This document shows positions 8,526-44,577 of a stretch of DNA of 64,000 nt, piece by piece. Position 1 is the stretch's first letter. Every line of letters starts with the position of its first letter. This DNA comes from a virus, in IMG/VR virus record IMGVR_UViG_3300015607_002611, positions 9,143 to 73,142 of that record. One strand, 5' to 3'. Below the pieces are notes generated by a model. That model was not told where the DNA came from and made no database searches. It saw nothing but the letters and a program-made list of their open reading frames with translations. Position numbers and translations under genes: made by a program.

Positions 8526-8536
8526 AATAAATAGAA

Positions 8537-13307: not shown

Positions 13308-13308
13308 T

Positions 13309-17497: not shown

Positions 17498-17498
17498 A

Positions 17499-17909: not shown

Positions 17910-17910
17910 T

Positions 17911-18459: not shown

Positions 18460-18460
18460 A

Positions 18461-19078
18461 ATGACAGAAGTAAATATAAATCTACTTAAAGATTCTTTTG
18501 ATAAAAGAAAGATTGATACAATAAGATATATTGTAAACGAATATGTTTCCAAGGGAGATGGGATTATTAATAAGAAATATTTTCAAGAATTAGGTAGTTA
18601 TACAAAAAGAAATGATGATACTGTAGATATAAATCTTTCAAATTATTTTTCTAGATTATTATATGCTCCTAATTTTGCAATATTAGATTATGTTATTAAA
18701 AATATAAATCAATTAAAAGATTTAAAATTCATTGATAATGGCGCTGGATTAGGTATACTTTCTATATTCTTAAAAACATTAAATATTGATTGTTATAATT
18801 ACGATAATTTTTCACAAATTAAAGATGTTACTTTTCATGAGAATGTTTTAAATAAAATGAATATTAAAATTCATCCTGTTTCTAGTCAAATACCAAATGA
18901 CTGTGAGGTATTAGTATGCTCTGGCATTTGGATTGATAATCCAGAATTCTTAAAAAGAAATTTACAATATGTTCTTTTAGATAGAAACCATGAAGATAAG
19001 GGAATTGGTCCTGAATTAACATCAGAATTTACTTTACTTGATAAATATAATACAATTAATGTTTATGGAAGAAAATAA
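18461..19078 (+). CDS. Methyltransferase-like protein (weak)
   Basis: 'FIDNGAGLGILSIFL' resembles the SAM-binding motif I. The ATG at 18461 is preferred. Confidence 0.3.
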   Translation: MTEVNINLLKDSFDKRKIDTIRYIVNEYVSKGDGIINKKYFQELGSYTKRNDDTVDINLSNYFSRLLYAPNFAILDYVIKNINQLKDLKFIDNGAGLGILSIFLKTLNIDCYNYDNFSQIKDVTFHENVLNKMNIKIHPVSSQIPNDCEVLVCSGIWIDNPEFLKRNLQYVLLDRNHEDKGIGPELTSEFTLLDKYNTINVYGRK

Positions 19079-19718
19079 AATTAAACCAATAGATTTTAGT
19101 TCAGTAACTGAATTTGAAAATCAAGTAGCCTCATTCTTTGGTGCTAAATATGCGATTGCTGTTGATTCATGTACACATGGTATAGAATTATGTTTGAGGC
19201 ATGTTAAAGCTGATTATATGTTTTCACCTAAGCAAACATATATCTCAGTTCCATTTCTTGCTAATAAACTAGGAATAGACTTAGTATGGACTGATTATGT
19301 ATGGCAGGATTGGTATACAGTATGGGGGAAAGGTGATTCTGGATTACAAAGAGTGTTAGATAAAAGAATTATAGACGCAGCTGTACTTTGGAAAAAGGAT
19401 AGTTATTTACCAGGCACATTTATGTGTCTTAGTTTTCAATATCAAAAACATTTAAGTTTAGGTAGAGGCGGAATGATTTTATGTGATGATGAAGTTTCTG
19501 CATTAGAATTAAAAAAGATGTCATATGATGGTAGATTACCAAATATACCATGGCGTTCACAAAACATTGATATATTTGGATATCATTATTATATGACACC
19601 TGAAACAGCATCAGTGGGATTACAAAAATTACCAGAGGCTATAGCAACTAAACCAAAACAATGGGTCATGAGTGATTGGCCAGATTTAACAAAAATGAAA
19701 GTATTTAATAATGAGTAA
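19059..19718 (+). CDS. DegT/DnrJ/EryC1-type sugar aminotransferase-like, short form
   Basis: 'FENQVASFFGAKYAIAVDSCTHGIELCL' (N-terminal signature) and 'LSFQYQKHLSLGRGGMIL' (PLP-Lys motif SFhxxKxxxxGxGGxI). Only ~220 aa, against ~370 for typical members. Confidence 0.45.
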   Translation: MFMEENKIKPIDFSSVTEFENQVASFFGAKYAIAVDSCTHGIELCLRHVKADYMFSPKQTYISVPFLANKLGIDLVWTDYVWQDWYTVWGKGDSGLQRVLDKRIIDAAVLWKKDSYLPGTFMCLSFQYQKHLSLGRGGMILCDDEVSALELKKMSYDGRLPNIPWRSQNIDIFGYHYYMTPETASVGLQKLPEAIATKPKQWVMSDWPDLTKMKVFNNE

Positions 19719-20700
19719 GAAAGCATTTATCACAGGAATTAATGGACAGGATGGTAGTTATTTAGCTGAATATCTATTATCATTGGGTTACGATGTACAT
19801 GGAATGATGAGACGTAATTCAGTACCTGAAAATCAAACAATGAGAATTGAATCAATTGAAAAAAATATTCAAACCCATTATGGTGATTTATTAGACCAAA
19901 CTTCAATCGAAAGATTATTAACAGAAATTAAGCCAGACGAAATTTATAATCTTGCAGCTCAGTCTCATGTAAGAATTAGTTTTGATGTACCTCAATTTAC
20001 AGTACAAACTAATTCAGTAGGTGTAATTAATATGCTAGAAGCATATAAAAGAATTGTACCAGATGCTAGATTTTATCAAGCAAGTTCATCTGAAATGTTT
20101 GGATTATCAGTAGAAGAAGATAATTTCCAAAGAGAAAGTACTATAATGAATCCTGTATCTCCTTATGGATGTAGTAAAGTATTTGGGTATAACGTAGTAA
20201 GACATTATAGAAGAGCTTATAATATACATGCTAGTAATGGTATTTTATTTAATCATGAAAGTCCTCGTAGAGGTTCTAACTTTGTAACTAATAAAGTAGT
20301 TAAGGGTGCGTGTATGATTAAGTTGGGTTTAGATAATAAGTTAGAATTAGGTAACATGGATTCTTATAGGGATTGGGGTCACTCTAAAGATTATGTTAAA
20401 GGGATGCATATGATTTTAAATCATGACGTTGCTGATGATTTTATTCTTTCGACAATGGAAACACATTCTGTTAGGGAAATGTGTGAAGTTGTATTTAGTT
20501 ATTTGGGTTTAAATTATCAAGATTATGTAGTTCAAAATCCTAAATATTTAAGACCTGAAGAATTACCTTATCTTAAAGGTGATTCTACTAAAGCAAGGAC
20601 AATTTTAGGTTGGAAACCAGAATATACATTTGAAGCTTTAATGCATGAAATGTGTGACCATTGGTTAGATGTATTACAAGGTAAAAAATCTTATAGATAA
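19711..20700 (+). CDS. gmd: GDP-mannose 4,6-dehydratase
   Basis: Near-full-length similarity to Gmd: 'KKAFITGINGQDGSYLAEYLL', 'YNLAAQSHV', 'FYQASSSEMFG', 'NGILFNHESPRRG', 'LGNMDSYRDWGHSKDYV'. Confidence 0.92.
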   Translation: MSKKAFITGINGQDGSYLAEYLLSLGYDVHGMMRRNSVPENQTMRIESIEKNIQTHYGDLLDQTSIERLLTEIKPDEIYNLAAQSHVRISFDVPQFTVQTNSVGVINMLEAYKRIVPDARFYQASSSEMFGLSVEEDNFQRESTIMNPVSPYGCSKVFGYNVVRHYRRAYNIHASNGILFNHESPRRGSNFVTNKVVKGACMIKLGLDNKLELGNMDSYRDWGHSKDYVKGMHMILNHDVADDFILSTMETHSVREMCEVVFSYLGLNYQDYVVQNPKYLRPEELPYLKGDSTKARTILGWKPEYTFEALMHEMCDHWLDVLQGKKSYR

Positions 20701-20963
20701 TGAAATTTGAAATATGGTCAGTAGGTATAGATGAAGGCGTATATACGCCTATGTTTAAGGAATTAGAGTCAGATGACTTTTCATATATTTATGCAACATT
20801 TTTAAAATTATCAAAGAATGGTATGTATATGATTACTACTAAGACTTTATTGCCAGCAAACGAGCTTAAAAATCAAAAGTGGATTTATGAATCACCTGAC
20901 GGTGGTAAAACAATTTATAAAAGAAAACGTTTAACAAATGATAGAGAACAACATGAGGGATAG
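20700..20963 (+). CDS. Hypothetical protein
   Basis: ATGA-coupled to gmd. Confidence 0.3.
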   Translation: MKFEIWSVGIDEGVYTPMFKELESDDFSYIYATFLKLSKNGMYMITTKTLLPANELKNQKWIYESPDGGKTIYKRKRLTNDREQHEG

Positions 20964-21549
20964 AATAAAAAATCTAATACAACAAGAATTAGATGCTATC
21001 AAAAATATTCCTATAAATGATACATTTGAAGATGCAGTTGAATTAATATACAATCATGTACATTTAGGAAGAGGTAAAATAGTAGCAGCAGGCATTGGAA
21101 AAGCTGGCCATATTGCACATAATATTGCCATGACATTATCTTCGACAGGGACGAGAGCAGTATTCATTCATCCTACCGAGGCACAACATGGTGATTTAGG
21201 TATATTAGGAAGAAATGATATTTTATTACTTGCTTCTAATTCAGGTAAAACAAGAGAAGTTTTAGAATTTATACAATTAGCAAAAAACATTTTTCCAGAC
21301 ATCAAAGTTATTTCAATTACTGGAAATAAAGAAAGTGAATTAGCTAATAAATCAACTGTAAATTTATATACAGGCGGTGCTAAAGAAATAGATAAATTTC
21401 AATTAGTCCCAACTACATCAACAACACTTATGACAATTATTGGAGATATTTTAGTTGTCGAATTAATGGATAAAATTAATTTTACTAAAGAACAATACCA
21501 ATTATTACATCATTCTGGATATATTTCTGAACAGCTAAAAAACAAATAA
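20938..21549 (+). CDS. kdsD: Arabinose-5-phosphate isomerase, SIS-domain only (KdsD/KpsF-like)
   Basis: 'GKIVAAGIGKAGHIAHNIAMTLSSTGTRAVFIHPTEAQHGDLGIL...LLLASNSGKTREV' parallels KdsD 'GMGKSGHIGRKMAATFASTGT...HPGEAAHGDLGM'. Confidence 0.8.
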   Translation: MIENNMRDRIKNLIQQELDAIKNIPINDTFEDAVELIYNHVHLGRGKIVAAGIGKAGHIAHNIAMTLSSTGTRAVFIHPTEAQHGDLGILGRNDILLLASNSGKTREVLEFIQLAKNIFPDIKVISITGNKESELANKSTVNLYTGGAKEIDKFQLVPTTSTTLMTIIGDILVVELMDKINFTKEQYQLLHHSGYISEQLKNK

Positions 21550-21550
21550 T

Positions 21551-22330
21551 ATGGAAAAACATTTTAAATTAATAGCAGGACCCTGTTTAATTGAAGACGA
21601 AGAAGTAGCTTTAAGAATTGCTGCAGAATGTAAATATATTGCTGATAGACTAGGAATAGAATATTACTTTAAAGGTTCTTATAAAAAAGCAAATCGAACT
21701 AAGCTTTCTAGTGTATCTTCTGGAATGACAGAAGAACGAGCTTTACAAGTTTTACATAAAATTAAAACTGTATTAGGTATACCTGTCGTTACAGATGTTC
21801 ATGAAACACATGATTGTGAAAAAGCTGCAAAATACGTAGACGTATTACAGATACCAGCATTTCTTTGTAGACAGACTGAGCTGCTTATAGCAGCAGGTAA
21901 AACTGGTAAGATAGTTAACATTAAGAAAGGTCAATTTATGGCACCAGAGTCAATGATTCATGCTCAAGAGAAAGTATATTCAACAGGTAATAAAAACGTT
22001 TGGCTTACAGAACGTGGAACTACATTTGGATATGAATATCTTGTAGTTGATATGACTTCAATGCCTAAAATGAGAAAGTTTAATGATAATGTTATAATGG
22101 ATTGTACACATTCAGTCCAAAGACCAAATCAGAACGGCCAGACAGGTGGAGACCCTGAAATGATAGAAACTATTGCTTTAAGTTCTATTGCAGCTGGCGC
22201 AACAGGATTATTCTTAGAAGTACATCCTGAACCTTGGAAATCTGGAAGTGATTCAACTAACATATTACAGATTGATAAATTAGAAGGTATTTTAGAGAAA
22301 TGTATTAAGGTTAAACAAGCCTTAAAATAA
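21551..22330 (+). CDS. kdsA: 3-deoxy-8-phosphooctulonate (Kdo-8-P) synthase
   Basis: 'GPCLIE', 'YFKGSYKKANRT', 'VVTDVHE', 'VDVLQIPAFLCRQTEL', 'VNIKKGQF', 'ERGTTFGY', 'DCTHSVQ' and 'LFLEVHPEP' are all KdsA signatures. Confidence 0.9.
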   Translation: MEKHFKLIAGPCLIEDEEVALRIAAECKYIADRLGIEYYFKGSYKKANRTKLSSVSSGMTEERALQVLHKIKTVLGIPVVTDVHETHDCEKAAKYVDVLQIPAFLCRQTELLIAAGKTGKIVNIKKGQFMAPESMIHAQEKVYSTGNKNVWLTERGTTFGYEYLVVDMTSMPKMRKFNDNVIMDCTHSVQRPNQNGQTGGDPEMIETIALSSIAAGATGLFLEVHPEPWKSGSDSTNILQIDKLEGILEKCIKVKQALK

Positions 22331-22331
22331 T

Positions 22332-22868
22332 ATGGCCAAAGTTTTAGAAAACATTAAAGGTACTCATGAATATTCAATACTTGTTGAATACATGAAACAA
22401 TTACAATATGATAAGTTAGTACACTCATCATATGCACCTAAGAGATTAGAAAAATGGTTCGGTTATTCATCTAATCTCCAGTCTATTAAAGATGGTAGAC
22501 ATGAATTAAAATTCATTGAAACAATACCTTACGTTTTCAATAGAATTAAAAACGATTATTATCCAGAATCTGATTCAATTTTAATTTGTAAAGGTGAAAA
22601 ACCAGATTCTGATACTTCAATTTCAAACCATAGAGACCACGGATGCTTTTTAGCAAAAGCTGTTATGTTAAATATTGGAATTTCTACATATACTGAAACT
22701 GATTATAATGGCTTAGTTAAATTATACGAACTGAATGATGGTGATATAATTGAAATTGATACAAAGATAATTCATGCATCAAGTCAAATAAGTGACCTGA
22801 GATTAAATGCAACTTTAAGAAAAGTTAGACCTGAATTTTTACCACGAAAAACAAACAATTTATTTTAA
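22332..22868 (+). CDS. Hypothetical protein, possible Fe(II)/2-oxoglutarate dioxygenase fold
   Basis: 'HRDHG' (HxD) with downstream 'IIEIDTKIIHAS' (second His). There is no HAD DxDG motif, so it is not KdsC. Weak. Confidence 0.25.
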   Translation: MAKVLENIKGTHEYSILVEYMKQLQYDKLVHSSYAPKRLEKWFGYSSNLQSIKDGRHELKFIETIPYVFNRIKNDYYPESDSILICKGEKPDSDTSISNHRDHGCFLAKAVMLNIGISTYTETDYNGLVKLYELNDGDIIEIDTKIIHASSQISDLRLNATLRKVRPEFLPRKTNNLF

Positions 22869-23617
22869 TGAGAACATTAGGAGTTATACCAGCAAGATAC
22901 GCTTCGACTAGATTGCCAGCTAAACCATTAGCTAAAATTAATGGTAAAACAATGATTGAATGGGTTTATGATGCTGCAATACAATCTGATTTAGATGAAG
23001 TTGTAGTTGCAACAGAAGATATTAAAATTTTTGATTACTGTAGTACTGTAGATATTAGAGTAGTTATGACTAGCCCAAATCACGTTTCAGGGACTGAAAG
23101 AATAATTGAAGTAACTAAAATGGAAGGTTACGATGATTTCGATATTATCGTTAATATACAAGGTGATGAACCGATGATTACTCCAAAAGATATTAATGAA
23201 CTTATTAATTCGATGAAAAATTGGCAATCAGTTTATCCAAATACAATTGGAACATTAGTTACTCTAATACAACCTCACGAATATACACAAAGAAGTTGCG
23301 TTAAAGCTTATCAGAAAGAAAATACTTCAGAAATTATAATGTTTACTCGAAGTAGCTTTTACAACTTCGAGTTAAATGAAGTTAATCGTTTCAAAAAACA
23401 TATTGGCATATATGCTTTTCCATCTAAGATTCTTGAAAACATTTCTGAACTTAAGGATAGAACTACAAATGAGATAGCTGAAAGTTTAGAACAACTTAGA
23501 TGGCTTGATAACGGAATGAGCATAGCAGGAGTTTTCACGTCAAATCAAACTATTTCAATTGATACACCAGAGGATTTAGAAAGAGTCCGTTTAAAATTAA
23601 AACATGAGCATATTTAA
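22868..23617 (+). CDS. kdsB: 3-deoxy-manno-octulosonate cytidylyltransferase (CMP-Kdo synthetase)
   Basis: 'LGVIPARYASTRLPAKPL', 'VVATED', 'SGTERI', 'IVNIQGDEPMI', 'IGIYAF' and 'IDTPEDLERVR' parallel E. coli KdsB throughout. Confidence 0.9.
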   Translation: MRTLGVIPARYASTRLPAKPLAKINGKTMIEWVYDAAIQSDLDEVVVATEDIKIFDYCSTVDIRVVMTSPNHVSGTERIIEVTKMEGYDDFDIIVNIQGDEPMITPKDINELINSMKNWQSVYPNTIGTLVTLIQPHEYTQRSCVKAYQKENTSEIIMFTRSSFYNFELNEVNRFKKHIGIYAFPSKILENISELKDRTTNEIAESLEQLRWLDNGMSIAGVFTSNQTISIDTPEDLERVRLKLKHEHI

Positions 23618-26078: not shown

Positions 26079-26561
26079 ATGAATAATTGGAGTAAAACAA
26101 ATCACGGTGGCCAAAAATTAGCCAAAGTAGAAGATAAGAAGCAATATGCTATCTTTGTAGGAAGATTTCAACCATATCATTATGGTCATATCTCTTTAAT
26201 TGAACAAAAGATTAATGATGGAATCCCTGCTTTAATTATGGTAAGAGATTTACCTGCAGATGAAAAAAATCCATTCACAACTGAACAAACTGTACAGATG
26301 ATTGAAAAATATCATAGTGCAAAAGGTCATGATGTAAAGGTAATGATTATACCTGATATCGAAAGTGTAAATTATGGTAGAGGTGTTGGATATGAAGTAA
26401 ATGAATTTACACCACCTGAGAATATTAGATTTATCTCTGCAACAAAAATCAGAGAGTCTATTAAAACTGGAAATACTGAATGGCATCAAATGGTCCATGA
26501 AAGTATACAAGACGATGTAATAAATTACTTAAAAGAAAACGATCTATTACTTTCTAAATAA
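26079..26561 (+). CDS. nadM: HxGH nucleotidyltransferase, archaeal/NadM-type NMN adenylyltransferase-like
   Basis: 'AIFVGRFQPYHYGHISLIE' matches the archaeal NMNAT signature GRFQPFHKGH. 160 aa. Confidence 0.5.
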   Translation: MNNWSKTNHGGQKLAKVEDKKQYAIFVGRFQPYHYGHISLIEQKINDGIPALIMVRDLPADEKNPFTTEQTVQMIEKYHSAKGHDVKVMIIPDIESVNYGRGVGYEVNEFTPPENIRFISATKIRESIKTGNTEWHQMVHESIQDDVINYLKENDLLLSK

Positions 26562-26565
26562 TTTA

Positions 26566-26588
26566 AAGCCGGTTTATCCGGCTTTTTT
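26566..26588 (+). terminator. Rho-independent terminator
   Basis: AAGCCGG-tttat-CCGGCTT followed by a T-run. Confidence 0.7.
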
Positions 26589-26647
26589 ATTCATAAACAA
26601 AACTAAATTAGTGCATATATAATCTATAACACGTTTATTAAAATATT

Positions 26648-27016
26648 ATGATTATTAGCATGTTAAAAATGGAATGGGAATATGTTGAAGATTTTATGGA
26701 CTATCAGTCTTTAAAAGTATATGACCTTTACTCAAAGGACGATATTCAAACATTCTATAAGAATTACAAAGAAGAAATAACTAACGAAATTTACGATGCT
26801 ATTGTAGTAATGATGAAAGAAAATCTGCTACAAATTCCTGTGTTTAAATTTAATATAGGTGGCAGAATAGCTAGGATTAGTGTTACTCGCGATAATATAG
26901 ATATTATTCTTAAAGAATGTATCGCAACATATGAAGAAACTGAGAATTACGAAAGATGTTCTCAAGCTTTAAAGCTTATTAATAATCAAATCGAAGATAC
27001 TGGATTAATCCATTAA
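26648..27016 (+). CDS. Hypothetical protein
   Basis: ORF only. Confidence 0.3.
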   Translation: MIISMLKMEWEYVEDFMDYQSLKVYDLYSKDDIQTFYKNYKEEITNEIYDAIVVMMKENLLQIPVFKFNIGGRIARISVTRDNIDIILKECIATYEETENYERCSQALKLINNQIEDTGLIH

Positions 27017-27057
27017 ACAATATCTTATTTTCACATATAAGTTCTAAACTAAATACT

Positions 27058-27270
27058 ATGGAAAATAATGTATATAATCATTTAGCAACGTGGGCTAAAC
27101 TTATTAAAGAACAGAATGAAAATCCTAAAAAATCTAATTCAGTTGAATTTGACTTTTTACCAGGTAAAATTTTTCATGGTGTACAAATACTTAATGCTAG
27201 TGATGATTTTAATAAAAACGAACTTAATTTTAAATTAATATACGATCATTGGGAAAATAAATTAGATTGA
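27058..27270 (+). CDS. Small hypothetical protein
   Basis: ORF only. It converges on the antisense HE gene. Confidence 0.25.
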   Translation: MENNVYNHLATWAKLIKEQNENPKKSNSVEFDFLPGKIFHGVQILNASDDFNKNELNFKLIYDHWENKLD

Positions 27271-27861
27271 TTTATTCAATTCAGATTTAATAAATCTATT
27301 AACTGGACCTCTAGGTAAATTTAATGATTTATATATTTTAGCAACATGATATCCTTTTTTATGAAGTTTCCTAATTTCATTTTTATTTTCATTAGATAAT
27401 ACTTCTATTGAACCAGATATTTTCACATGGGGAATATTATTCTTATTGCAATATCTTCTTATATTATGTTTTTTGATTTTTAAAATTCTCCCTATTTCAT
27501 TTATATGAATTCCTTCATTAGCTAATTTTAAAATTTCTATTTCTTTATCTTCAGCAATTGAAGGTTTAGGACCACACTCTCCACCTATTGTACTATTATA
27601 TCCATTATGAAATGAATTATATTTGATTATTTCTATAGTTTCTATTCTTTTAGATTCATCCCACGTCAAATTATCTAATATAATATCCCATTTAAAATTA
27701 TCCTGACCATACTTTCTAATGGCATTATAAAATTTATTTTTAATCTTTTTGACTAAAGCTTTACGTAAATGTCTAGATTTTCTATAATCTAATGAGTGTT
27801 TAGTTCTACCAATATAAACATCTGATGTAATAATATTTGTTACTTTATATACTAATCCCAT
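27262..27861 (-). CDS. GIY-YIG homing endonuclease (free-standing, only antisense gene in window)
   Basis: 'LVYKVTNIITSDVYIGRTKHSLDYRKSRH...YNAIRKYG' is a GIY-YIG signature. The C-terminal DNA-binding region is 'NIRRYCNKNNIPHVK'. An ATATATAAT-like motif sits upstream on the minus strand (27862-27885). Confidence 0.85.
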   Translation of the reverse strand: MGLVYKVTNIITSDVYIGRTKHSLDYRKSRHLRKALVKKIKNKFYNAIRKYGQDNFKWDIILDNLTWDESKRIETIEIIKYNSFHNGYNSTIGGECGPKPSIAEDKEIEILKLANEGIHINEIGRILKIKKHNIRRYCNKNNIPHVKISGSIEVLSNENKNEIRKLHKKGYHVAKIYKSLNLPRGPVNRFIKSELNKSI

Positions 27862-27949
27862 AATATATTATATATTGCGTATGGCTTCACATTAAACCCT
27901 ATAATGAAACTTTTACATATTTAACAATATAATAATTTAAACTACTAAT

Positions 27950-29233
27950 ATGGAATTTAAAAGTAATTATAAAAGAATTGCGACATACGAAGGTGTACCT
28001 TCTGAAAATGAAAATGTTTTACTATTATACAGTGGAGGTTTAGATACTTCTGTAATGTTAAAATGGATTCAAGATGTATATAAAGTTAACGTTTATGCAC
28101 TATGTGTTAATATTGGTCAACGTGAAAATTTTGAACCAATTATTGATAAGGCTATAAAAATAGGTGCTAAAGTTTGTGAAGTAGTAGATGCTACTGAAAG
28201 ATACGCTAAAGATGTTTGTCAAGAGGCTATTACATTTAATGCTGATTATGAAGATGGATATCATTTATTTTGTCCATTAGGTCGTATTATGATTTCTCAA
28301 ATTGCAGTTGAATATGCTAATAAATGGAATTGTAAATATATTTGCCACGGTGCAACCGGGAAAGGTAATGACCAGATTCGTTTTGATAATTATATTACAA
28401 CATTAAATCCAAAACTTAAAATTTTAGCTCCTGTTCGTGAATGGGCAATGGGAAGAGAAGAAGAAATTGCATACGCTAAAGAACATAACATTCCAGTTAC
28501 AGCTTCATTAGAAAAGATTTATAGTTATGACGAAAATCTTTGGGGCTGTAGTGCAGAAGGTGGAGAAATTGAAGACTTTAAAAAGATACCACCATTAGAT
28601 AGAATTTTAAAATTTACAGAATTACCTGAAGATAATACTCCTGATGTACCAGATTACGTTACATTAGTTTATCGTATGGGTGAATTAATTAGTATTAATT
28701 ATGGCGGTAAAACGCAAGACTCAAATGAATCTATCAAAGATATGATTACTAGTGCCAATGAAATTGGTAAAAAACATGGAATTGGTATTACACATTTAGT
28801 TGAAGATAGAGTTCTTGGTTTAAAAGTAAGAGGTATTTATGAAGAACCAGGTGCTGAGATATTAATTAAAGCACATAAAGGTTTAGAGAAAGCTGTTTCG
28901 ACAAGAGAAGAAATTCAATTCAAAGAATTAGTTGATAGACAATGGTCACAATTAGTTTATGAAGGTCGCTATTTCCACCCACTTGTTAATTCACTAAGAG
29001 CTTTTGCTAGACAAATGAATTCAAAAGTATCTGGTAAAGTTACCGTTAAATTATTTAAAGGTAGAGCTGAAGTAGTTGCAATTGATTCAAGATATTGTTT
29101 AAACAGTGAAGCATCATCATTCATGAAAGAAAATAGCTTTAATCAGAATGCTTCACCTGGTTTTATTGAACATTTTGGATATTCAGCAAGAACTGCATAC
29201 AATTTAAAGAAACCTGTTAACGAAATTATATAA
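27950..29233 (+). CDS. argG: Argininosuccinate synthase (type I)
   Basis: PP-loop 'LLLYSGGLDTSV', 'HGATGKGNDQIRF', 'DENLWGCSAEGG', 'RGIYEEPGAEIL' and 'GKVTVKLFKG' are collinear with human/bacterial ASS. Confidence 0.9.
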   Translation: MEFKSNYKRIATYEGVPSENENVLLLYSGGLDTSVMLKWIQDVYKVNVYALCVNIGQRENFEPIIDKAIKIGAKVCEVVDATERYAKDVCQEAITFNADYEDGYHLFCPLGRIMISQIAVEYANKWNCKYICHGATGKGNDQIRFDNYITTLNPKLKILAPVREWAMGREEEIAYAKEHNIPVTASLEKIYSYDENLWGCSAEGGEIEDFKKIPPLDRILKFTELPEDNTPDVPDYVTLVYRMGELISINYGGKTQDSNESIKDMITSANEIGKKHGIGITHLVEDRVLGLKVRGIYEEPGAEILIKAHKGLEKAVSTREEIQFKELVDRQWSQLVYEGRYFHPLVNSLRAFARQMNSKVSGKVTVKLFKGRAEVVAIDSRYCLNSEASSFMKENSFNQNASPGFIEHFGYSARTAYNLKKPVNEII

Positions 29234-30489
29234 TGAGTAAAATTTGGGCTAAAGATAATAAAGAAATGAGCAATACTGCAAAGTTCTTTAATTCATTTAC
29301 AACTGGTAATGATTATATTATAGATAGGGATAACTTTCTTTATTTTGATTTAGTTGCTAGTAAAGCCCATGCCTTAACTTTACAAGAAGCTGGTATTTAT
29401 AGTAAAGAAGATTTATTTAAAATAAACAATTTACTAGATATGGCAATGATTACACCAGGTTTAATTGAAGTAACCAAAGAAGATGAAGATTGTCATACTG
29501 CTATAGAAAAGTATTTAACTAAACTTGCTGGAGATTTAGGTAAAAAAATTCATACAGGTCGTAGCAGAAACGACCAATCTTTAACAATGATTAGATTATA
29601 CATGACTACGAAGTTAGGTCAAGTCATGGATTTAGATTGTAATTTAATCGAAACATTAGATAATCTTTCAAAAAGATATAAGGACCAATTGTTTATAGGT
29701 TATTCTCATACTCAACAGGCTATGATTACAACACTAGGACATTATTACAATGCCTTCTGTGAACAAGTTTCAGATGATTGGGATTTATTAGAAAATATTA
29801 AATTCTTAATCGATAAAAGTCCACTAGGCTCAGGCGCTGGATTTGGCTCTCCTGTTAAACTTAATAGAAAATTAAGTGCAAAGAAAATGGGATTTAGAGG
29901 TGTTCAGAATAATAGCCTCTACTGCCAAAATAGTAGAGGTAAGTTTGAACTTCTTTATGTTCAGGGTCTAGGACATGTAATGGAAACATTACAAAAACTT
30001 GCAACTGATATGATACTTTATACAACTAGAGAATTTTCATTCTTTGATGTAAGTGATGATTTATCACAAGGTAGTAGTATGATGCCACAGAAAAAGAATT
30101 TAGATGTATTTGAATTAATAAGAGCTAAAGCTGCAGAGGTAATAAGTTTAGAAGCAAGATTACATTTAATAAATAAGGGTTTACCTTCAGGTTATAATAG
30201 AGATTTACAATTAGTAAAAAATGCTATTGTTGAAGCTACTGAAACAACTTCTGATTGTTTAAGAGCAATGGATTTAGCTTTAAGGAATATTACACCTAAT
30301 GATGCGAATATTAGAAAAGAAATTCGCGAAGATATTTATTCTGCTGATTTAGCGACAATCAAATGTATGGATAATCCTGCTCTTAATTTTCGAGATGTAT
30401 ATAAAGAAATATTAAATGATAAGACTATTTATACACCAGAAGAGATATTAAAACGTCGTGTAAGTGCTGGTTCACCTGGAAATTATTAA
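29233..30489 (+). CDS. argH: Argininosuccinate lyase
   Basis: 'LGKKIHTGRSRNDQ', 'GYSHTQQA', 'SPLGSGAGFG' and fumarate-lyase signature 'GSSMMPQKKNLD'. This is the ArgH-type GSSxMPQKKN, not the PurB-type motif. Confidence 0.9.
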   Translation: MSKIWAKDNKEMSNTAKFFNSFTTGNDYIIDRDNFLYFDLVASKAHALTLQEAGIYSKEDLFKINNLLDMAMITPGLIEVTKEDEDCHTAIEKYLTKLAGDLGKKIHTGRSRNDQSLTMIRLYMTTKLGQVMDLDCNLIETLDNLSKRYKDQLFIGYSHTQQAMITTLGHYYNAFCEQVSDDWDLLENIKFLIDKSPLGSGAGFGSPVKLNRKLSAKKMGFRGVQNNSLYCQNSRGKFELLYVQGLGHVMETLQKLATDMILYTTREFSFFDVSDDLSQGSSMMPQKKNLDVFELIRAKAAEVISLEARLHLINKGLPSGYNRDLQLVKNAIVEATETTSDCLRAMDLALRNITPNDANIRKEIREDIYSADLATIKCMDNPALNFRDVYKEILNDKTIYTPEEILKRRVSAGSPGNY

Positions 30490-30492
30490 TTC

Positions 30493-30523
30493 TTTGGGTG
30501 TACATAACTATTTGTTAGTTTTA
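30493..30523 (+). promoter_or_regulatory. Bacteroidetes-type promoter (TTTG-N19-TAGTTTTA) upstream of NfeD-flotillin operon
   Basis: TTTG at 30493-30496 and TAgtTTTA at 30516-30523 with exact 19-nt spacing. Confidence 0.5.
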
Positions 30524-30552
30524 TCATATAAATTAAAAATAAGATAAAGACA

Positions 30553-31131
30553 ATGGATATTACACAATTCTTTGAGGCAATGCCTACACCACAGCGAATC
30601 TTATGGTACATCGCAATACCATCTACAATCGTTTTCGCTTTCATGATGTTTATGACGTTTTTAGGCCTAGATGGTACTGATGGCGTTGATACAGATTTAG
30701 ATACTGATGTTGTTGATGCATCAGACGCATTTCAAATTTGGACTTTTCGAAATTTAATTATATTCCTATCAATCTTTTCATGGAGTGCAATATCATTTTT
30801 AAATAACAACGTATCATTTACATGGACAGCAATTTATTCTTTAGTATTAGCCACTGCTGTAGTAATATTACTCACATCGTTGTTTTTCTTTATGCACAAA
30901 TTACAACAAGACAATACTCCTCAAATTAGTGAAATTTTAAATAAACCAGCATTAGTTTATCTTACTGTACCTGAAAGAGGAAAAGGAATGGGTAAGATTA
31001 ATGTAACATATGGTGGAGCATTACGAGAAGTAAATGCTGTATCAATGAATAGAAATTTTAAAACAGGTGAACAAGTAAAAATAGTAGATTTACAAGGTGA
31101 CCTTGCATTTATAGACGAATTAAATAAATAA
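30553..31131 (+). CDS. nfeD: NfeD-like membrane protein (short YuaF-type, partner of SPFH/flotillin)
   Basis: N-terminal TM helices plus C-terminal OB/beta-barrel 'PERGKGMGKINVTYGGALREVNAVSMN...GEQVKIVDLQGDLAFIDE'. Confidence 0.7.
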   Translation: MDITQFFEAMPTPQRILWYIAIPSTIVFAFMMFMTFLGLDGTDGVDTDLDTDVVDASDAFQIWTFRNLIIFLSIFSWSAISFLNNNVSFTWTAIYSLVLATAVVILLTSLFFFMHKLQQDNTPQISEILNKPALVYLTVPERGKGMGKINVTYGGALREVNAVSMNRNFKTGEQVKIVDLQGDLAFIDELNK

Positions 31132-31163
31132 GAATCAATAACAATTAAAAACAAAAAAGAAAA

Positions 31164-32855
31164 ATGGTATCAACAATAGTTACAATTTCAATTATCGCAG
31201 TAGCGGTATTCGCAACAATTGCAGCCTTAGTTTCTAGGTACAAGCGTTGCCCATCTGACAAGGTGTTAGTCGTGTATGGTAAAGTAGGTAAAAATGCAAA
31301 TGGTCAATCGACAGCAAAATGTATTCACGGTGGTGCATCATTTATTTGGCCAGTAATTCAAGATTTCGCTTTCATGGATTTAAAACCAATGGCGTTAGAT
31401 GTGAACTTACAGAATGCATTATCGAAACAAAACATTCGTTTAAATGTTCCATCGACTTATACAGTAGCTATTAATACTGAAGCAAGTTATGTAAACAATG
31501 CAGCAGAACGTTTATTAGGTTTAGATAGAACAGAGATTGGCCAATTAGCAAAAGATATTATCTTAGGTCAAATGCGTTTAGTAATTGCCACAATGGGTAT
31601 CGAGGAAATCAATACTGACCGTGACCAATTCTTATCTAAAATTCAAGAATGTGTTGAAGGTGAATTACAAAAGATTGGTTTAAAATTAATTAACGCGAAC
31701 ATCGTCGATATTCAAGATGAATCTGGTTATATCGAAGCTTTAGGTAAAGAAGCTGCAGCGAAAGCTATTAACGATGCGAAAGTATCAGTATCTGAAAAGA
31801 ATCGTGATGGTGCTATTGGTGAAGCAAACGCTAATCAAGATAAACGTACAAGAGTAGCTGAACTTACTACTAAAGCCGAAATTGGTGAAGCAAACGCAAT
31901 ACAAGAAAAACGTATTAAGTTAGCTGAAAACGACGCAGCAGCATTAGCCGGTGAAGCTGAAGCAAACGCAAAAGCATATGTTGCACAAGCCGAAGCAAAT
32001 GCTAAAGCTGAAGCAGCTAAAGCCGAAGCAAATGCTAAATTAGAAGGTGCGAAAGCATTAGCAACAGCAAATGCTGAAATCTCTAAAGCAGAAGCAGAAT
32101 CTAATTCACGTCAAAGAAAAGCAGAACTTAATGCAACCGCAATTAAAGGTGAAAATAGTTCACAAATTCAAATTGCTGAATCAGCTGCAGAACGTCAAGT
32201 AAAAGAAGCAGAAGCTAATCGTAAAGCAGTAACAGCTCAGAAAGTAAAAGAAGCTGAAGCTTTAAAAGAATCATATAAAGCACAAGAAGAAGCCGAAAAA
32301 GCACGTGCTGATAAAGATAAAGCATCACAATTCGCTGACGTAATCGTTAAAGCTGAAATTGAAAAAAATCGTATTGAGTTATCTGCAGAAGCTGAAGCTG
32401 AAAAAGAAAGAAGAATTGCAAAAGGTAAAGCTGATGCTAAATTTGCCGAAATGGAAGCAGAAGCTAAAGGTAACTATGAGCGTCTTGCAAAACAAGCCGA
32501 AGGTATTCAGAAGTTAGTACAAGCTGCAGGAGGTGATCCTGATAAAGCTATCCAATTAATGCTTGCTGATAAAATCGAAACATTATACTCAATTCAAGTT
32601 GATGCTATTAAAAATGTTAAGATTGATAAAATCACTGTTTGGGACCAAGGTTCTGGAAACGGAGCTGGAACAGGAAGTTCAACTTCTGACTTCTTAAGAA
32701 GCATGTTAAACATCGTACCTGGTTTCGATGAAGTATACAAAATGGCTGGTAAAGAATTGCCATCAATGTTACAAGGTGCAGGTGAAAAAACCAAAGCAGC
32801 TGCATTAGGTGAAAATGAAGCCAAAGCTGAAATCTCTGATAAAAAGCAAAAGTAA
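31164..32855 (+). CDS. floT: Flotillin-like SPFH/band-7 protein (FloT/YuaG-like)
   Basis: N-terminal membrane anchor, SPFH domain, then a long Ala/Glu-rich flotillin-type coiled coil ('AEANAKAEAAKAEANAKLEGAKA'). Immediately downstream of the nfeD-like gene, as in yuaF-floT operons. Confidence 0.85.
   Translation: MVSTIVTISIIAVAVFATIAALVSRYKRCPSDKVLVVYGKVGKNANGQSTAKCIHGGASFIWPVIQDFAFMDLKPMALDVNLQNALSKQNIRLNVPSTYTVAINTEASYVNNAAERLLGLDRTEIGQLAKDIILGQMRLVIATMGIEEINTDRDQFLSKIQECVEGELQKIGLKLINANIVDIQDESGYIEALGKEAAAKAINDAKVSVSEKNRDGAIGEANANQDKRTRVAELTTKAEIGEANAIQEKRIKLAENDAAALAGEAEANAKAYVAQAEANAKAEAAKAEANAKLEGAKALATANAEISKAEAESNSRQRKAELNATAIKGENSSQIQIAESAAERQVKEAEANRKAVTAQKVKEAEALKESYKAQEEAEKARADKDKASQFADVIVKAEIEKNRIELSAEAEAEKERRIAKGKADAKFAEMEAEAKGNYERLAKQAEGIQKLVQAAGGDPDKAIQLMLADKIETLYSIQVDAIKNVKIDKITVWDQGSGNGAGTGSSTSDFLRSMLNIVPGFDEVYKMAGKELPSMLQGAGEKTKAAALGENEAKAEISDKKQK
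31790..32430 (+). repeat. Coding low-complexity EA/EANA repeat region of flotillin
   Basis: Repeated GAAGCAAA(C/T)GC(T/A)AA units encoding 'GEANANQDKRT'/'GEANAIQEKRI'/'AEANAKA'. Boundaries are approximate. Confidence 0.6.
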
Positions 32856-32880
32856 GCTAATCTCTAATATATAAATGCCA

Positions 32881-32910
32881 AAAGCCTGAGTTATTGACTC
32901 AGGCTTTTTT
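32881..32910 (+). terminator. Rho-independent terminator
   Basis: AAAGCCTGAGT-tattg-ACTCAGGCTTT followed by a T-run. Confidence 0.8.
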
Positions 32911-32967
32911 ATGTTTAAACTTTTCCATAATTTCGTAAATAAATACTATAAATAAGCATATTGTTTT

Positions 32968-33297
32968 ATGGGCTCTATAATTAAAAGAATAGAATATTTT
33001 AAATTAATATTCGATGGTATTGACTTAAATGTACGAAGTAAAATATCAGATGAAATTGAAGAAATGTTTATGCCTAAAGATGAATATGAAAATATTTATA
33101 GGGAACCTTCAACTAATGATTTATTAATAGAATTAAAAATACTTGAGGAAGCACTTAAAGATGCTAAGAAAGAATTGAAGGATGCTAAGAGAGATGTGAA
33201 GAAGGGGGTAATGAGTGAAGATGATTTATATAATTATAAATGTGCAGTGGATGAATTATTACAACAAATAAAAGACATTAAGTCTAATTTGAAATAG
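32968..33297 (+). CDS. Hypothetical coiled-coil protein
   Basis: Charged heptad-like sequence. Confidence 0.3.
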   Translation: MGSIIKRIEYFKLIFDGIDLNVRSKISDEIEEMFMPKDEYENIYREPSTNDLLIELKILEEALKDAKKELKDAKRDVKKGVMSEDDLYNYKCAVDELLQQIKDIKSNLK

Positions 33298-33328: not shown

Positions 33329-34075
33329 ATGAAAAGAATTAAAAATCCAGCAATCTATAAAATAGAAAATGCTATAGATGGTAAAATCTATATTGGTTCG
33401 GCTATTGATTATAAAGATAGGTGGGCTAATCATAAATCTACTTTAAATAAAGGAACTCATCATAATAATCATTTACAAAATGCATATCATAAAGATGGTA
33501 TCAATTCATTTAATTATTCTATATTAGAATTCATAAAAATAAAAGATAATTATGATATTAATATAATTAAAAAGATTCTAATTGAAAGAGAGCAATATTA
33601 TTTAGATAATATATTATATGCAAACCAAGACAATAATTTATTTTATGAATTAGGTTATAATAAACGTCGAATTGCAGAAAATAATTTAGGTATAAAAGTA
33701 TCTGAAGAAGGTAGAATTAATATAAGTAAAGCTCATATTGGAATTAAACATAGTATTGAAACAAGAATTAAAATGAGTAAATCACAAAAAATAGCTAAAT
33801 CTAAAAGCACATATAAAATTAGTAAAGAAACTAGAGATAAAATAAGTAAATCACATACGGGTAAAAAACTTACTGAATCTCATAAAAATTTAATTAGTAA
33901 AAATAATGCAAATAATAGAGAATGTAATCAGTATAATAAAGATGGTAAATTTATTAAAAGATGGAACTCTTTAGCATTAGCTGCAAATGAATTAAATATA
34001 ATACAGCAGCATATTTCAGCTGTCTGTAGAGGTAAAAGATCATATGCTGGAAATTATAAATGGGAATATGTATAA
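33329..34075 (+). CDS. GIY-YIG homing endonuclease with NUMOD-like repeats
   Basis: 'PAIYKIENAIDGKIYIGSAIDYKDRWANH'. Repeated 'ISKAHIGIKHSIETRIKMSKSQK' modules. C-terminal HTH-like 'LAANELNI'. Confidence 0.85.
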   Translation: MKRIKNPAIYKIENAIDGKIYIGSAIDYKDRWANHKSTLNKGTHHNNHLQNAYHKDGINSFNYSILEFIKIKDNYDINIIKKILIEREQYYLDNILYANQDNNLFYELGYNKRRIAENNLGIKVSEEGRINISKAHIGIKHSIETRIKMSKSQKIAKSKSTYKISKETRDKISKSHTGKKLTESHKNLISKNNANNRECNQYNKDGKFIKRWNSLALAANELNIIQQHISAVCRGKRSYAGNYKWEYV

Positions 34076-36283: not shown

Positions 36284-36886
36284 ATGGGTGCTTTTAAAGT
36301 AAAAGGATATAAGGAATTTTTAAATGAAAAATGGTCAGGCGATCATATATCTATATTTGATATAGATGATACATTAGTTGTGACTGCAGCAAAGATTAAA
36401 GTATATGATATGCAAGATGATACTGAATATTCTTTAACACCTGCTGAGTTTAATAAATATGAAAGGCAATCACATCACCATGTTGATTATAGTGAATTTG
36501 ATGACCCTAATTTATTATTACAAGGTAAACCAATTAAATGGGTATTAAATATACTTAAGAAAACAATGAATAAAGAAAAAGCTGTAGGTATAATTACAGC
36601 TAGACAAGATAAACAACTTATTATTGATTTTCTTAAAAAGCATGATGTTAAAATAAATCCAGATTTTGTATTTGCAGTTAATGACCCTAAAACTAAATAT
36701 AAGGGTAGTAATGCTGAAAGAAAGAAACAGGCATTTAAAGATTTAATTGATATGGGCTTTAGAGATTTCAGATTCTTTGATGATAATCTTGATAACTTAG
36801 AATATGCAAAACAATTAGAACATGAATATGATGATGTTACAGTTGAGACTAAACACATTATAGATAAATGGATCCCGCGCATCTAA
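36284..36886 (+). CDS. HAD-superfamily phosphatase (DxDxT type)
   Basis: Motif I 'ISIFDIDDTLVV', motif II 'VGIITARQD' and motif IV 'RFFDDN'. Confidence 0.6.
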   Translation: MGAFKVKGYKEFLNEKWSGDHISIFDIDDTLVVTAAKIKVYDMQDDTEYSLTPAEFNKYERQSHHHVDYSEFDDPNLLLQGKPIKWVLNILKKTMNKEKAVGIITARQDKQLIIDFLKKHDVKINPDFVFAVNDPKTKYKGSNAERKKQAFKDLIDMGFRDFRFFDDNLDNLEYAKQLEHEYDDVTVETKHIIDKWIPRI

Positions 36887-36913: not shown

Positions 36914-37633
36914 ATGATTATTTATAAAATAACTAATACTATTAATAATAAAATTTATATAGGACAAAGTAGCTTAACATTAAAACAGAGAATTAATAGA
37001 CATTTACATCAATCAAGTAAGGATAATCCTAAAATGAAAATTTGTAGAGCTATTAAAAAATATGGATTTTCTAACTTTAAATTTGAAACAATAGAAGATA
37101 ATATAACAAATTTAGATTTATTAAATGAAAGGGAAATGTATTGGATTTCTTTATTAAAAAGTAATAATAAAGAAATAGGTTATAATACTTTACCAGGCGG
37201 CAGATTTAATCATATAATTAAATATAATCCGGGTATGAGTAATAAAAATCATAGTGAAGAATCTAAAGATAAAATTAGAAAAGCATTTAAAGGTAAGAAG
37301 CGACCGCAATCACATATTGATGCAATGAAAAAATATTATTTAGATAATCCTAATAGACCTAAAAGAATTGTTAGTAAAGAAAGTAGAATAAAAATGAGTT
37401 TAAGTAAATCAGGTTCTAATAATCCGTGGTTTGGTAAACAAGGTCATAGATATGGTAAAGGTACTAATATTTATCAATATAATTTAGAAGGTATTTTAAT
37501 TAAAAAATGGGATAATTCAAATATAGCATCTAAGGAACTTAATATTGATAGATTAGCTATTGATAGAAGATGCAAAAAAAAATCAAATAAACCATATATG
37601 GGTTATTTGTGGTCTTATAATAAAAATATATGA
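36914..37633 (+). CDS. GIY-YIG homing endonuclease
   Basis: 'MIIYKITNTINNKIYIGQSS...RINRH', NUMOD-like 'SEESKDKIRKAFKGKKRP' and a C-terminal HTH-like region. Confidence 0.85.
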   Translation: MIIYKITNTINNKIYIGQSSLTLKQRINRHLHQSSKDNPKMKICRAIKKYGFSNFKFETIEDNITNLDLLNEREMYWISLLKSNNKEIGYNTLPGGRFNHIIKYNPGMSNKNHSEESKDKIRKAFKGKKRPQSHIDAMKKYYLDNPNRPKRIVSKESRIKMSLSKSGSNNPWFGKQGHRYGKGTNIYQYNLEGILIKKWDNSNIASKELNIDRLAIDRRCKKKSNKPYMGYLWSYNKNI

Positions 37634-43097: not shown

Positions 43098-43562
43098 ATG
43101 AAAAAAGTATTAGTAATAAGTAAACGCGAGTTTGATAAAGTAATGCGCGATAATAAAATCACTGCAGAAAATATCGAAAATAGAAGTAAAGTCGCATTTA
43201 TTTCTATTAATGATACTTTCGGCACAACTGAAACACCTTTCTTTAAAGAAGACAAGGAAAATTTGCGCATCTTGTTTTTTGATGATGTTACTGAAGATAC
43301 CAAGTTAAATTGGGGCACAGCAAAAGCATTTAACAAAGAACAAGGTAAAATTGTTTTAGAATTCTTAAACAAAATCAAGGATCGCGATACATTAATAGTA
43401 CACTGTCACGCTGGAATTTCTAGGAGTGGTGCAGTAGGTCAATTCGCTGCTGATTACTTTGGTTTAGATTACAAAGAATTCAGAAACTTAAACCCACACA
43501 TTCACCCTAATTCTACCGTTACAAGAATATTAAGAGAATTAGCTCGTGAACAAGAAGACTAA
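43098..43562 (+). CDS. Cys-based (CX5R) phosphatase, dual-specificity/polynucleotide-phosphatase-like
   Basis: P-loop 'VHCHAGISRSG'. Confidence 0.75.
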   Translation: MKKVLVISKREFDKVMRDNKITAENIENRSKVAFISINDTFGTTETPFFKEDKENLRILFFDDVTEDTKLNWGTAKAFNKEQGKIVLEFLNKIKDRDTLIVHCHAGISRSGAVGQFAADYFGLDYKEFRNLNPHIHPNSTVTRILRELAREQED

Positions 43563-44577
43563 CATATTATTATCAAGGGACGAATTCAGAGAAGGTGTTT
43601 TTGAGAGAGATGGGCATAAATGCGTTGTTTGTAAAGAGCAAGGCAAAGATGCCCATCACATTCTCGAAAGAAGATTATTCAATGACGGTGGTTATTATTT
43701 AGATAACGGAGCAACGTTATGTGAAAAACATCATATTGAAGCTGAACAGACAACATTAAGTTGTGATACTATCAGAGAGCTTTGTGGTATTGAAAACTTA
43801 ATCATACCTGAACATTTTTACTCTGACTATGATTATGATAAATGGGGTAATATTATTCAGCCTAATGGATTGAGATTAAAGGGTGAATTGTTTTATGATG
43901 AATCAGTTCAGAAGATATTAAATCAAGGTAATGTTTTGAATTTATTTCAAAAATATGTAAAATATCCAAGAACTTATCATTTACCATGGAGCAATTTACT
44001 TAAAGACGATAGAAAATTAAGTGACGATTCATTCTTTCATGGAAAGAGAGTTATAATGACACTTAAAATGGATGGTGAAAATACAACAATGTATAATGAT
44101 TATATTCATGCACGTTCTTTAGAATCTAAGTCACATGAAACTAGAAATTGGGTCAAAGGCCTTTGGTCTAGAATCTCATATCTTTTAGATGAGAATATGA
44201 GATTATGTGGAGAGAATTTATATGCTGTTCATTCAATTGAATATAATGATTTACCTTCATATTTCATGCCATTCTCATTATGGATGGACAATAAGTGTTT
44301 AAGTTGGGATGAAAGTGTAGAGTACTTTAAAATTTTAGGTTTAGAACATGTTCCAGTTATCTATGATGGAATTTATGATAAAGATAAAATCATTGAAACA
44401 TTTTCTAAATATGAAAAAGAACACGAAGGCTTCGTAATTAGAATTGCAGATGAATTCAATTATGGTGAATTTAGAAGATGTGTCGCTAAATTCGTTAGAC
44501 CTGAGTTTAGACAAATAGTTAATAATTCACATGGTCACTGGATATCAAAGAAAGTGACTGTAAATAAATTAAAATAA
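43546..44577 (+). CDS. HNH/zinc-finger domain fused to ATP-dependent nucleotidyltransferase ligase (RNA-ligase-like)
   Basis: N-terminal 'CVVCKEQGKDAHHILERRLF...NGATLCEKHH' is HNH-like. Ligase motifs are I 'LKMDGEN', III 'LCGENLYAVHS', IV 'HEGFVIRIA' and V 'AKFVRPEF'. Confidence 0.6.
   Translation: MNKKTNILLSRDEFREGVFERDGHKCVVCKEQGKDAHHILERRLFNDGGYYLDNGATLCEKHHIEAEQTTLSCDTIRELCGIENLIIPEHFYSDYDYDKWGNIIQPNGLRLKGELFYDESVQKILNQGNVLNLFQKYVKYPRTYHLPWSNLLKDDRKLSDDSFFHGKRVIMTLKMDGENTTMYNDYIHARSLESKSHETRNWVKGLWSRISYLLDENMRLCGENLYAVHSIEYNDLPSYFMPFSLWMDNKCLSWDESVEYFKILGLEHVPVIYDGIYDKDKIIETFSKYEKEHEGFVIRIADEFNYGEFRRCVAKFVRPEFRQIVNNSHGHWISKKVTVNKLK

Follow-up and report, generated by a model that had tools for sequence, protein, structure and literature searches.

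Bacillus subtilis carries the operon yuaF-floT (NfeD2-FloT), a member of the sigma-W regulon, and it is with this YuaF-FloT type that the locus described here belongs by architecture: an NfeD-like gene followed by a flotillin gene in a 64,000-nt stretch of viral DNA (positions 9,143 to 73,142 of IMG/VR record IMGVR_UViG_3300015607_002611; the whole stretch is hereafter called the window). In Staphylococcus aureus, FloA and NfeD stabilise unfolded membrane proteins in membrane microdomains independently of ATP (PMC11222466). The yqiJ-yqiK genes of Escherichia coli resemble the window pair in encoding a small inner-membrane protein and a 553-aa flotillin-family protein. YqiK aligns with the window flotillin over 444 residues (E=4e-17), but at an identity of only 23%, and YqiJ (DUF1449) is not detectably related to the NfeD-like family of the window (hhalign probability 0.3%), so that YqiJ/DUF1449 membership was rejected; a faint YqiJ_N match occurs in only one or two members of that family. 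Eukaryotic flotillins are held in the membrane by lipid-modified hairpin anchors instead of a transmembrane (TM) helix. The window flotillin is homologous to Flotillin-1 and Flotillin-2 (PDB 9BQ2, 9L3G) over the SPFH domain and the first coiled coil, whereas the eukaryotic proteins form a hetero-oligomer and have no NfeD partner.

Two papers give the SPFH genes of phages a passing mention and call their function unclear (PMC8540360, PMC13239085), and neither SPFH nor flotillin nor NfeD comes up in a comparative survey of jumbo phages (PMC7824862). Our literature search found no functional study of a phage flotillin, nor an account of strict NfeD-flotillin linkage in large phages. Annotated full-length flotillins number two in 50,697 GenBank phage records, those of csAssE-Sib (OR575929, a 151-kb gut phage) and Vibrio phage KIT04 (LC487410), with no function reported for either in the literature. 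Each shares only 35-36% identity with the window protein, and the phages that encode them are of unrelated lineages. In csAssE-Sib, a "transmembrane protein" directly upstream of the flotillin is NfeD-like (hhalign probability 96%); the flotillin of KIT04, a T5-like member of the Demerecviridae, has no NfeD partner, the protein upstream of it having been ruled out as NfeD. An earlier note, made from the letters of the window and a list of its open reading frames (ORFs), had called a phage-borne flotillin unusual, which holds for GenBank phage records but not for metagenomic phages, in which at least 159 viral contigs of IMG/VR encode a related protein (alignment-based scan).

The window pair differs from B. 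subtilis yuaF-floT in being phage-encoded behind a promoter-like site of Bacteroidota type, in a flotillin that is not a FloT orthologue and in an NfeD-like protein with an Asp-rich linker between TM1 and TM2 and without a Pfam NfeD match. We consider, with reasonable confidence, that it is a complete two-gene operon of a short, YuaF-type NfeD and a flotillin, captured long ago and since kept as a conserved, vertically inherited host-maintenance module of a group of large uncultured phages. The features of the locus are as follows.

30493..30523, +, promoter-like site of Bacteroidota type: -33 element TTTG (30493-30496), 19-nt spacer, -7 element TAGTTTTA (30516-30523)
30553..31131, +, short-form NfeD-like membrane protein, 192 aa: TM helices 12-36, 65-84 and 89-120, OB-fold 132-189
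31132..31163, +, A-rich intercistronic spacer, 32 nt, without a terminator or a Shine-Dalgarno motif
31164..32855, +, flotillin-family SPFH protein, 563 aa: matches to Pfam Band_7, the FloT model and PDB flotillins
32880..32914, +, intrinsic terminator: 13-bp perfect stem with a 3-nt loop (32880-32908), then a U-tract

Anatomy of the NfeD-flotillin operon

The whole window has a G+C content of 29.2%, and its plus strand carries nearly all ORFs. At the flagged site the two co-oriented ORFs of 192 and 563 aa are separated by a 32-nt gap in which a terminator scan found no terminator-like site. This spacer, lacking a terminator and a Shine-Dalgarno motif alike, suggests that the NfeD-like and flotillin genes are co-transcribed. 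The anatomy given in the earlier note, a YuaF/FloT-type pair with a promoter-like site and a strong intrinsic terminator of its own, is borne out: ORFs and signals lie where it had placed them, and as far as sequence signals go, "self-contained operon" is a correct description. A prophage or cellular origin of the window was rejected on its near-uniform gene strand, its GIY-YIG homing endonucleases, its RNA ligases with T4-type PHROG matches and its Thg1. It is further disfavoured by scanned ORFs devoid of core cellular machinery such as ribosomal proteins, by the phage-like contigs that carry the relatives of the flotillin and by the occurrence of the pair on IMG/VR viral contigs. No tRNA genes were found in the window.

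The flotillin call held in a search with SPFH hidden Markov models (HMMs): Pfam Band_7/SPFH (PF01145) matches residues 30-213 with E=1.3e-25 and 90.9 bits, against a gathering cutoff of 23.6. The best NCBIfam match is the FloT model NF058507 (171.1 bits, E=4.4e-50), whose equivalog cutoff is 700 bits; the protein is a flotillin but not a FloT orthologue. Residues 47-374 match the solved chains of human Flotillin-1 (E=2e-23) and Flotillin-2 (E=4e-20), a homology that spans the SPFH domain and the first coiled coil. The Pfam Flot C-terminal domain PF15975 gave no match at E<=0.01, with Band_7 alone reported; among flotillin homologues PF15975 is precomputed for a minority. In the AlphaFold2 (AF2) model, whose predicted local distance difference test score (pLDDT) is 66 and which was used for secondary structure alone and not for fold search, an N-terminal membrane helix (2-25) leads into an alpha/beta SPFH domain (about 30-213), followed by two helices of about 115 residues each (223-337 and 341-454) and a C-terminal region. 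The "EA-repeat coiled coil" of the earlier note corresponds to these two helices, which consist of Ala/Glu/Lys-rich repeats and appear in the sequence as an EA/AK-rich helical stretch. Directly after the N-terminal membrane helix stands an invariant RYKRCPSD motif. Homology that does not stop at the SPFH domain but takes in a long Ala/Glu-rich coiled coil, together with an N-terminal membrane anchor, places the protein in the flotillin subfamily, and its homologues bear the name flotillin in their sources.

The 192-aa protein itself matches no Pfam or NCBIfam model, in Pfam even at E<=10. It lies within a large family of proteins of about 200 aa (5,041 representatives at E<=1e-3), and Pfam NfeD (PF01957) matches 4 of its 9 close relatives and 19 of 40 sampled family members (best E=6.5e-6). 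The best genuine PDB match of the family profile is the soluble domain of B. subtilis YuaF (2K14), with E=0.0047 and 0.0014. The AF2 model (pLDDT 74) predicts three TM helices, an Asp-rich, acidic, disordered linker at about residues 40-60 and a C-terminal five-strand OB-fold barrel (132-189) that superimposes on solved NfeD domains, in agreement with the OB-fold proposed before. It also has N-terminal TM helices, and its gene lies just upstream of an SPFH gene in the same orientation; the protein appears to represent a divergent NfeD subfamily that the Pfam model captures in part. The ClpP-class serine protease domain of long-form NfeD1a is absent from this 192-aa protein by Pfam scan and AF2 model. 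An Asp/Glu-rich linker joins TM1 to TM2 in all members of the family, those of phages and of cells alike (window 30664-30738, residues about 38-62); it is variable in length, frequently has DxD-type repeats and is disordered in the AF2 model, and it may serve in cation binding.

Upstream of the pair, the TAGTTTTA element ends 30 nt before the start codon of the NfeD-like gene, and the site at 30493-30523 fits the -33/-7 promoter type of Bacteroidota. A loose TTTG-N19-TAnnTTT pattern occurs at 11 sites in the window against 5.8 expected, an excess of about 2-fold (4 of 100 shuffles reach 11). The strict motif TTTGG-N-TTAnnTTT has six sites and one near-variant, all on the plus strand and intergenic (starts at 30493, 39764, 43053, 45278, 53295, 56321 and 56751), and none on the minus strand of the window. 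The distance from these sites to the ORF start that follows is 16-31 nt, with a single exception of 150 nt, and in the recurrent form TTTGGG(G)-N-TTAnnTTT the spacing from TTTG to TA is exactly 19 nt. In two related phage contigs, L001 and L005, the site upstream of the NfeD-like gene is kept at -55 to -60 with the same 19-nt spacing. The recurrent motif probably represents a class of phage promoters recognised by a Bacteroidota-type sigma factor; the site at 30493-30523 belongs to this class of the phage's own and would act as such a promoter. A scan for the sigma-70 consensus was uninformative in this AT-rich window (59 sites against 57.8 expected). Shine-Dalgarno-like motifs precede only 4 of 83 window genes, and the leaders are 52% A; scarce Shine-Dalgarno motifs and A-rich leaders are typical of Bacteroidota. 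The terminator folds with a free energy of -18.5 kcal/mol (z=-5.7), which none of 200 shuffles equals, and its hairpin is conserved in L001 with paired substitutions.

Relatives, selection and base composition

The earlier note had interpreted the pair as a recent host-derived moron, that is, as accessory cargo newly taken from a cellular genome; its relatives tell a different story. They were searched among 5.8 billion protein clusters, with 8,000 flotillin homologues scored. After an identical sequence, the nearest flotillins are P0002 (81% identity) and P0003-P0006 (59-60%); P0002 is encoded on the 63-kb contig L001, which also carries an SprB/CHU_C-domain gene, and P0006 on the 43-kb contig L005, both of them clearly related phages. 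Among the matches listed, flotillins with a cellular name or context are 50-58% identical and mostly come from Bacteroidota (Crocinitomicaceae, Schleiferiaceae, Roseivirga, Bacteroidales), so the near-identical cellular donor expected of a recent transfer did not appear among these clusters. A pattern-limited scan of genome contigs, unfit as a donor search, returned 13 scattered loci, the best from Paracnuella (49%) and Brassicibacter (54%). The hosts of these phages are probably Bacteroidota, judging from the sequence signals.

The window, L001 and L005 share the gene order NfeD-like, flotillin, 110-aa protein, ATP-grasp and NUDIX. A moron would be expected to be missing at this position from close relatives; the pair is present there in L001 (81%) and in L005 (about 60%), and all other sampled phage relatives also carry it. 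The protein of 109-110 aa that follows directly on the flotillin terminator in the three phages (window 32968-33297, L001 11801-12133, L005 11746-12078) has no significant family match and evolves fast, with identities of 57% and 37%, and may have a functional link to the operon.

In a neighbour-joining tree of the top 120 flotillin hits, the window protein groups with the L001 and L005 copies (bootstrap 67), and two adjoining subclades have bootstrap values of 92 and 95. All seven sampled members of these three nearest subclades lie in phage-like contexts, among which are the following contigs.

L012, phage-like context
L014, 89 kb, with Thg1, RNA ligase, homing endonucleases and PhoH
L015, 56 kb, phage-like context
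L029, 317,744 bp, with Pfam matches to a T4-type prohead protease and portal (the portal match faint)
L030, 425 kb, phage-like context

In each of these five an NfeD-like gene of 179-200 aa, 26-65% identical to that of the window, lies directly upstream of the flotillin. Lengths of 151, 425 and 596 kb occur among the IMG/VR contigs, a large group of which are gut phages of about 75-155 kb. In 77 of 80 retrieved viral loci an NfeD-family ORF, recognised by the family HMM, ends just upstream of the flotillin; the other three stop at the contig end, so that an NfeD-family gene is directly upstream in all 77 testable loci. A scan of IMG/VR with the single flotillin protein had returned nothing, its peptide patterns being too specific, and it was the alignment-based repeat that succeeded. 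Neither megablast of 10 kb around the locus nor tblastn of a conserved 464-aa neighbour protein gave a match in INPHARED, and there is therefore no sequenced close relative in that phage collection. Contigs of jumbo- to megaphage size carry the pair (L030/L034, 425,361 bp; L036, 596,785 bp, from IMG/VR; L029, 317,744 bp); L030 has many gaps between called genes, which might reflect low coding density or an alternative genetic code.

Cellular genomes have the same arrangement. The Bacteroidota-like chromosome L031 (4.17 Mb) encodes a 190-aa protein and a 533-aa flotillin 18 nt apart, its upstream partner belonging to the same NfeD-like family as that of the window (HMM E=1.3e-57), and a Firmicute chromosome encodes a 200-aa protein and a 474-aa flotillin. 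Flotillins of the Bacteroidota chromosomal pairs (L031, Crocinitomicaceae, Schleiferiaceae, Roseivirga) are 53-57% identical to that of the window and share 121 invariant columns with it, whereas identity between the cellular NfeD partners and the window protein is only about 27%, and the cellular flotillins separate from the phage subclades in the tree. Nothing in the make-up of the window pair departs from that of the cellular operons.

Between the window and L001 the nonsynonymous and synonymous divergences (dN and dS) are 0.13 and 0.79 for the flotillin (ratio about 0.16) and 0.28 and 1.42 for the NfeD-like gene. At 81% amino-acid identity the flotillin is the best conserved of the genes compared, ahead of ArgH (65%), NfeD (65%) and the 110-aa protein (57%). 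The dS between syntenic relatives is 0.8-1.7, which is near-saturated. The pair is under purifying selection in phages. Across 30 phage and cellular flotillins 121 alignment columns, the RYKRCPSD motif included, are invariant, which argues that the phage flotillin almost certainly keeps the biochemical activity of cellular flotillins. A pair that is syntenic in relatives down to about 60% identity with near-saturated dS, and that recurs in many large phages, is no recent moron.

The original argument for recent acquisition was compositional, both genes having been described as noticeably richer in G+C than the surrounding DNA. This is true of the flotillin gene, which ranks first in G+C among 84 ORFs (0.370; mean 0.293; z=2.4) and underlies the 1-kb maximum of the window (0.374), but not of the NfeD-like gene (0.318, z=0.8), which is unremarkable. 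The excess sits in codon positions 1 and 2 (GC1 0.541, rank 1; GC2 0.387), whereas at third positions (GC3) the flotillin gene is ordinary (0.183, z=0.26 and rank 34 of 84, the mean of the window being 0.172). Alanine makes up 17.8% of the flotillin against 4.8% in the rest of the window, and the observed G+C of 0.371 compares with 0.356 expected from its amino-acid sequence and the codon usage of the window (z=0.85). Synonymous codon choice is phage-typical in both genes (z=-0.54 and -0.64), and when the proposed comparison of G+C and codon usage was run, the foreign composition was thus not to be seen at synonymous sites. The G+C peak follows from the alanine-rich coiled coil. The flotillin gene exceeds its flanks by 2.7-9.8 G+C points in 12 of 12 genomes examined, and because the excess is also seen in native bacterial chromosomes (L031, +5.2 points; L007, +2.7 points), the bump is intrinsic to the flotillin gene family. 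As a methodological caution, a G+C peak over an alanine-rich coiled-coil gene is no evidence of recent horizontal transfer, and GC3 and codon choice should be checked.

The real compositional outliers of the window are three low-GC GIY-YIG homing endonuclease genes at 33329-34075, 36914-37633 and 52421-53125, the lowest-GC ORFs (0.226, 0.226 and 0.200, respectively). The first of them stands between the conserved 109-aa gene and a 241-aa gene, where L001 has no gene, which suggests a recent insertion.

Genomic surroundings

Directly upstream of the operon lie argG (27950-29233, argininosuccinate synthase) and an argH-like gene (29233-30489, argininosuccinate-lyase-like, Lyase_1), both with phage-typical GC3 and both kept in L001 (6344-9293). 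L005 has a DDAH-like gene (arginine/dimethylarginine hydrolase family, 8463-9353) where the window has argG and argH. When ArgG was searched by tblastn against INPHARED, most of the records matched (29-42% identity) were short or without annotation, and some may be host contamination; arginine-pathway genes therefore look rare in sequenced phages. Just upstream of argG, the ORF at 27262-27861 is the only sizeable one on the minus strand that does not overlap a plus-strand gene; it coincides with the sole interval of negative GC skew (26500-28000) and with a low-GC trough of 0.233, and the region may mark a boundary between transcription units.

Further upstream, a surface-glycan block (11778-23617) encodes a sialyltransferase-like protein (PHROG), GT2, GT11 and GT10 (fucosyltransferase-type) enzymes, a GDP-mannose 4,6-dehydratase, a DAHP_synth_1-family enzyme that is likely a KDO-8-P synthase and a CTP_transf_3 cytidylyltransferase that is likely a CMP-KDO synthetase. 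Such a block points to extensive remodelling of the envelope glycans of the host. Parts of it recur in L001 and L005, which also encode an APS kinase. Near the start of the window, two thymidylate-synthase-like genes (282-1334 and 2168-3037) flank an APH-type phosphotransferase-like gene, a pairing that could point to a modified-nucleotide pathway. Downstream of the pair the window has an unusually rich RNA-repair set, comprising a polynucleotide-kinase-like protein, three RNA ligase genes and a Thg1-like tRNA-His guanylyltransferase, at these positions.

36284-36886, RNA-repair gene
43546-44577, RNA-repair gene
45457-46623, RNA-repair gene
47192-48223, RNA-repair gene
49117-49896, RNA-repair gene

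Proposed role in the infected cell

We propose that the host RNA polymerase would transcribe the operon from a promoter of Bacteroidota type that also serves several non-structural genes of the phage, including an RNA ligase gene. The flotillin would be anchored in the inner membrane through its N-terminal helix, its long helices oligomerising into an SPFH scaffold or cage, and the NfeD partner would dock on it via the OB-fold domain. In the infected cell the pair would then shape membrane microdomains, preserve fluidity and, without ATP, stabilise membrane proteins, and so keep the envelope functional as host expression declines and the envelope-glycan enzymes of the phage act. It would supplement the host's own flotillin/NfeD system as an auxiliary host-maintenance module.

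Several points weigh against this proposal. The role in infection is drawn from homology, and no expression, localisation or phenotype study of any phage flotillin was found in the literature. The flotillin scores far under the NCBIfam FloT equivalog cutoff (171 against 700 bits), its AF2 monomer is of moderate confidence (pLDDT 66) and the window NfeD-like protein itself has no Pfam NfeD (PF01957) score. The host of the phage is deduced from sequence signals. Lastly, the monophyly of all phage flotillin copies (25 proteins) has a bootstrap of 35, and a single capture event is therefore not claimed.

The window's wealth of envelope glycan enzymes, together with contig L029 and its Pfam matches to a prohead protease and, faintly, a portal of T4 type, could also fit a phage-specific platform in which the flotillin/NfeD scaffold makes membrane sites for T4-type prohead assembly or for glycan-synthesis enzymes. 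T4 proheads initiate on the inner membrane, and cellular flotillins scaffold membrane complexes. This explanation is purely inferential, however: neighbourhoods vary between lineages, neither structural nor glycan genes are linked to the pair in a conserved way, and the csAssE-Sib pair adjoins replication genes. We regard it as unlikely. An equally tentative extension would see in the pair a phage-adapted membrane-compartment builder common to many large or jumbo Bacteroidota phages and to gut phages, with an SPFH cage making inner-membrane domains for replication, capsid assembly or envelope remodelling; if true, it would be the bacterial-virus counterpart of the raft/flotillin platforms exploited by eukaryotic viruses.

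Slightly less likely still is a function in conflict, in which the scaffold would reorganise the inner membrane so as to exclude superinfecting phages, or else would sequester or neutralise membrane-acting defence effectors such as abortive-infection pores and membrane-bound sensors. The earlier note had raised interference with defence, and also membrane remodelling, as possibilities; both are speculative. The module recurs in independent large-phage lineages, a pattern typical of conflict genes, and is apparently expressed from a host-type promoter. Yet in PADLOC-DB the NfeD-like protein, the flotillin and three downstream neighbours had no match at E<=0.01, and conflict genes usually evolve fast, whereas the identity of this flotillin to its homologues, in phages and in cells, is 55-63% (dN/dS about 0.16). 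The lack of a PADLOC match to either protein and the slow evolution weigh somewhat against such a role, and our literature search found no paper tying SPFH proteins to exclusion.

It seems improbable that the pair works in the manner of HflK/C-FtsH or stomatin-NfeD, controlling protein turnover or lysis timing by caging or modulating a holin or a membrane protease. SPFH proteins do regulate FtsH, and HflK/C affects the lysis-lysogeny decision of lambda, as summarised in one account (PMC8540360), but the NfeD here is the short form of 192 aa without a protease domain, its partner is of flotillin type and not of HflK/C or stomatin type, and there is no adjacent lysis or protease gene. As for the recent moron, strain-specific accessory cargo still bearing its donor's higher G+C, it has in its favour a promoter-like site and terminator of its own (the promoter type being common to other phage genes), the highest G+C in the window and Bacteroidota as the nearest named cellular relatives, but we give it hardly any credence given phage-typical GC3 and codon choice with a G+C excess explained by amino-acid content, the same bump in native chromosomes, listed cellular relatives just 50-58% identical, synteny in relatives of 81% and about 60% at a dS of 0.8-1.7, and a promoter-like site of the phage's own recurrent class.

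What the analysis shows is the strict NfeD-flotillin linkage, the purifying selection and the recurrence in at least 159 viral contigs, including some of 300-600 kb. Bacterial flotillins and their NfeD partners are poorly understood, and because the phage keeps exactly these two genes of the host locus and nothing else, the pair offers a natural experiment on the flotillin-NfeD role and is a candidate for a widespread membrane-maintenance auxiliary module of large phages.

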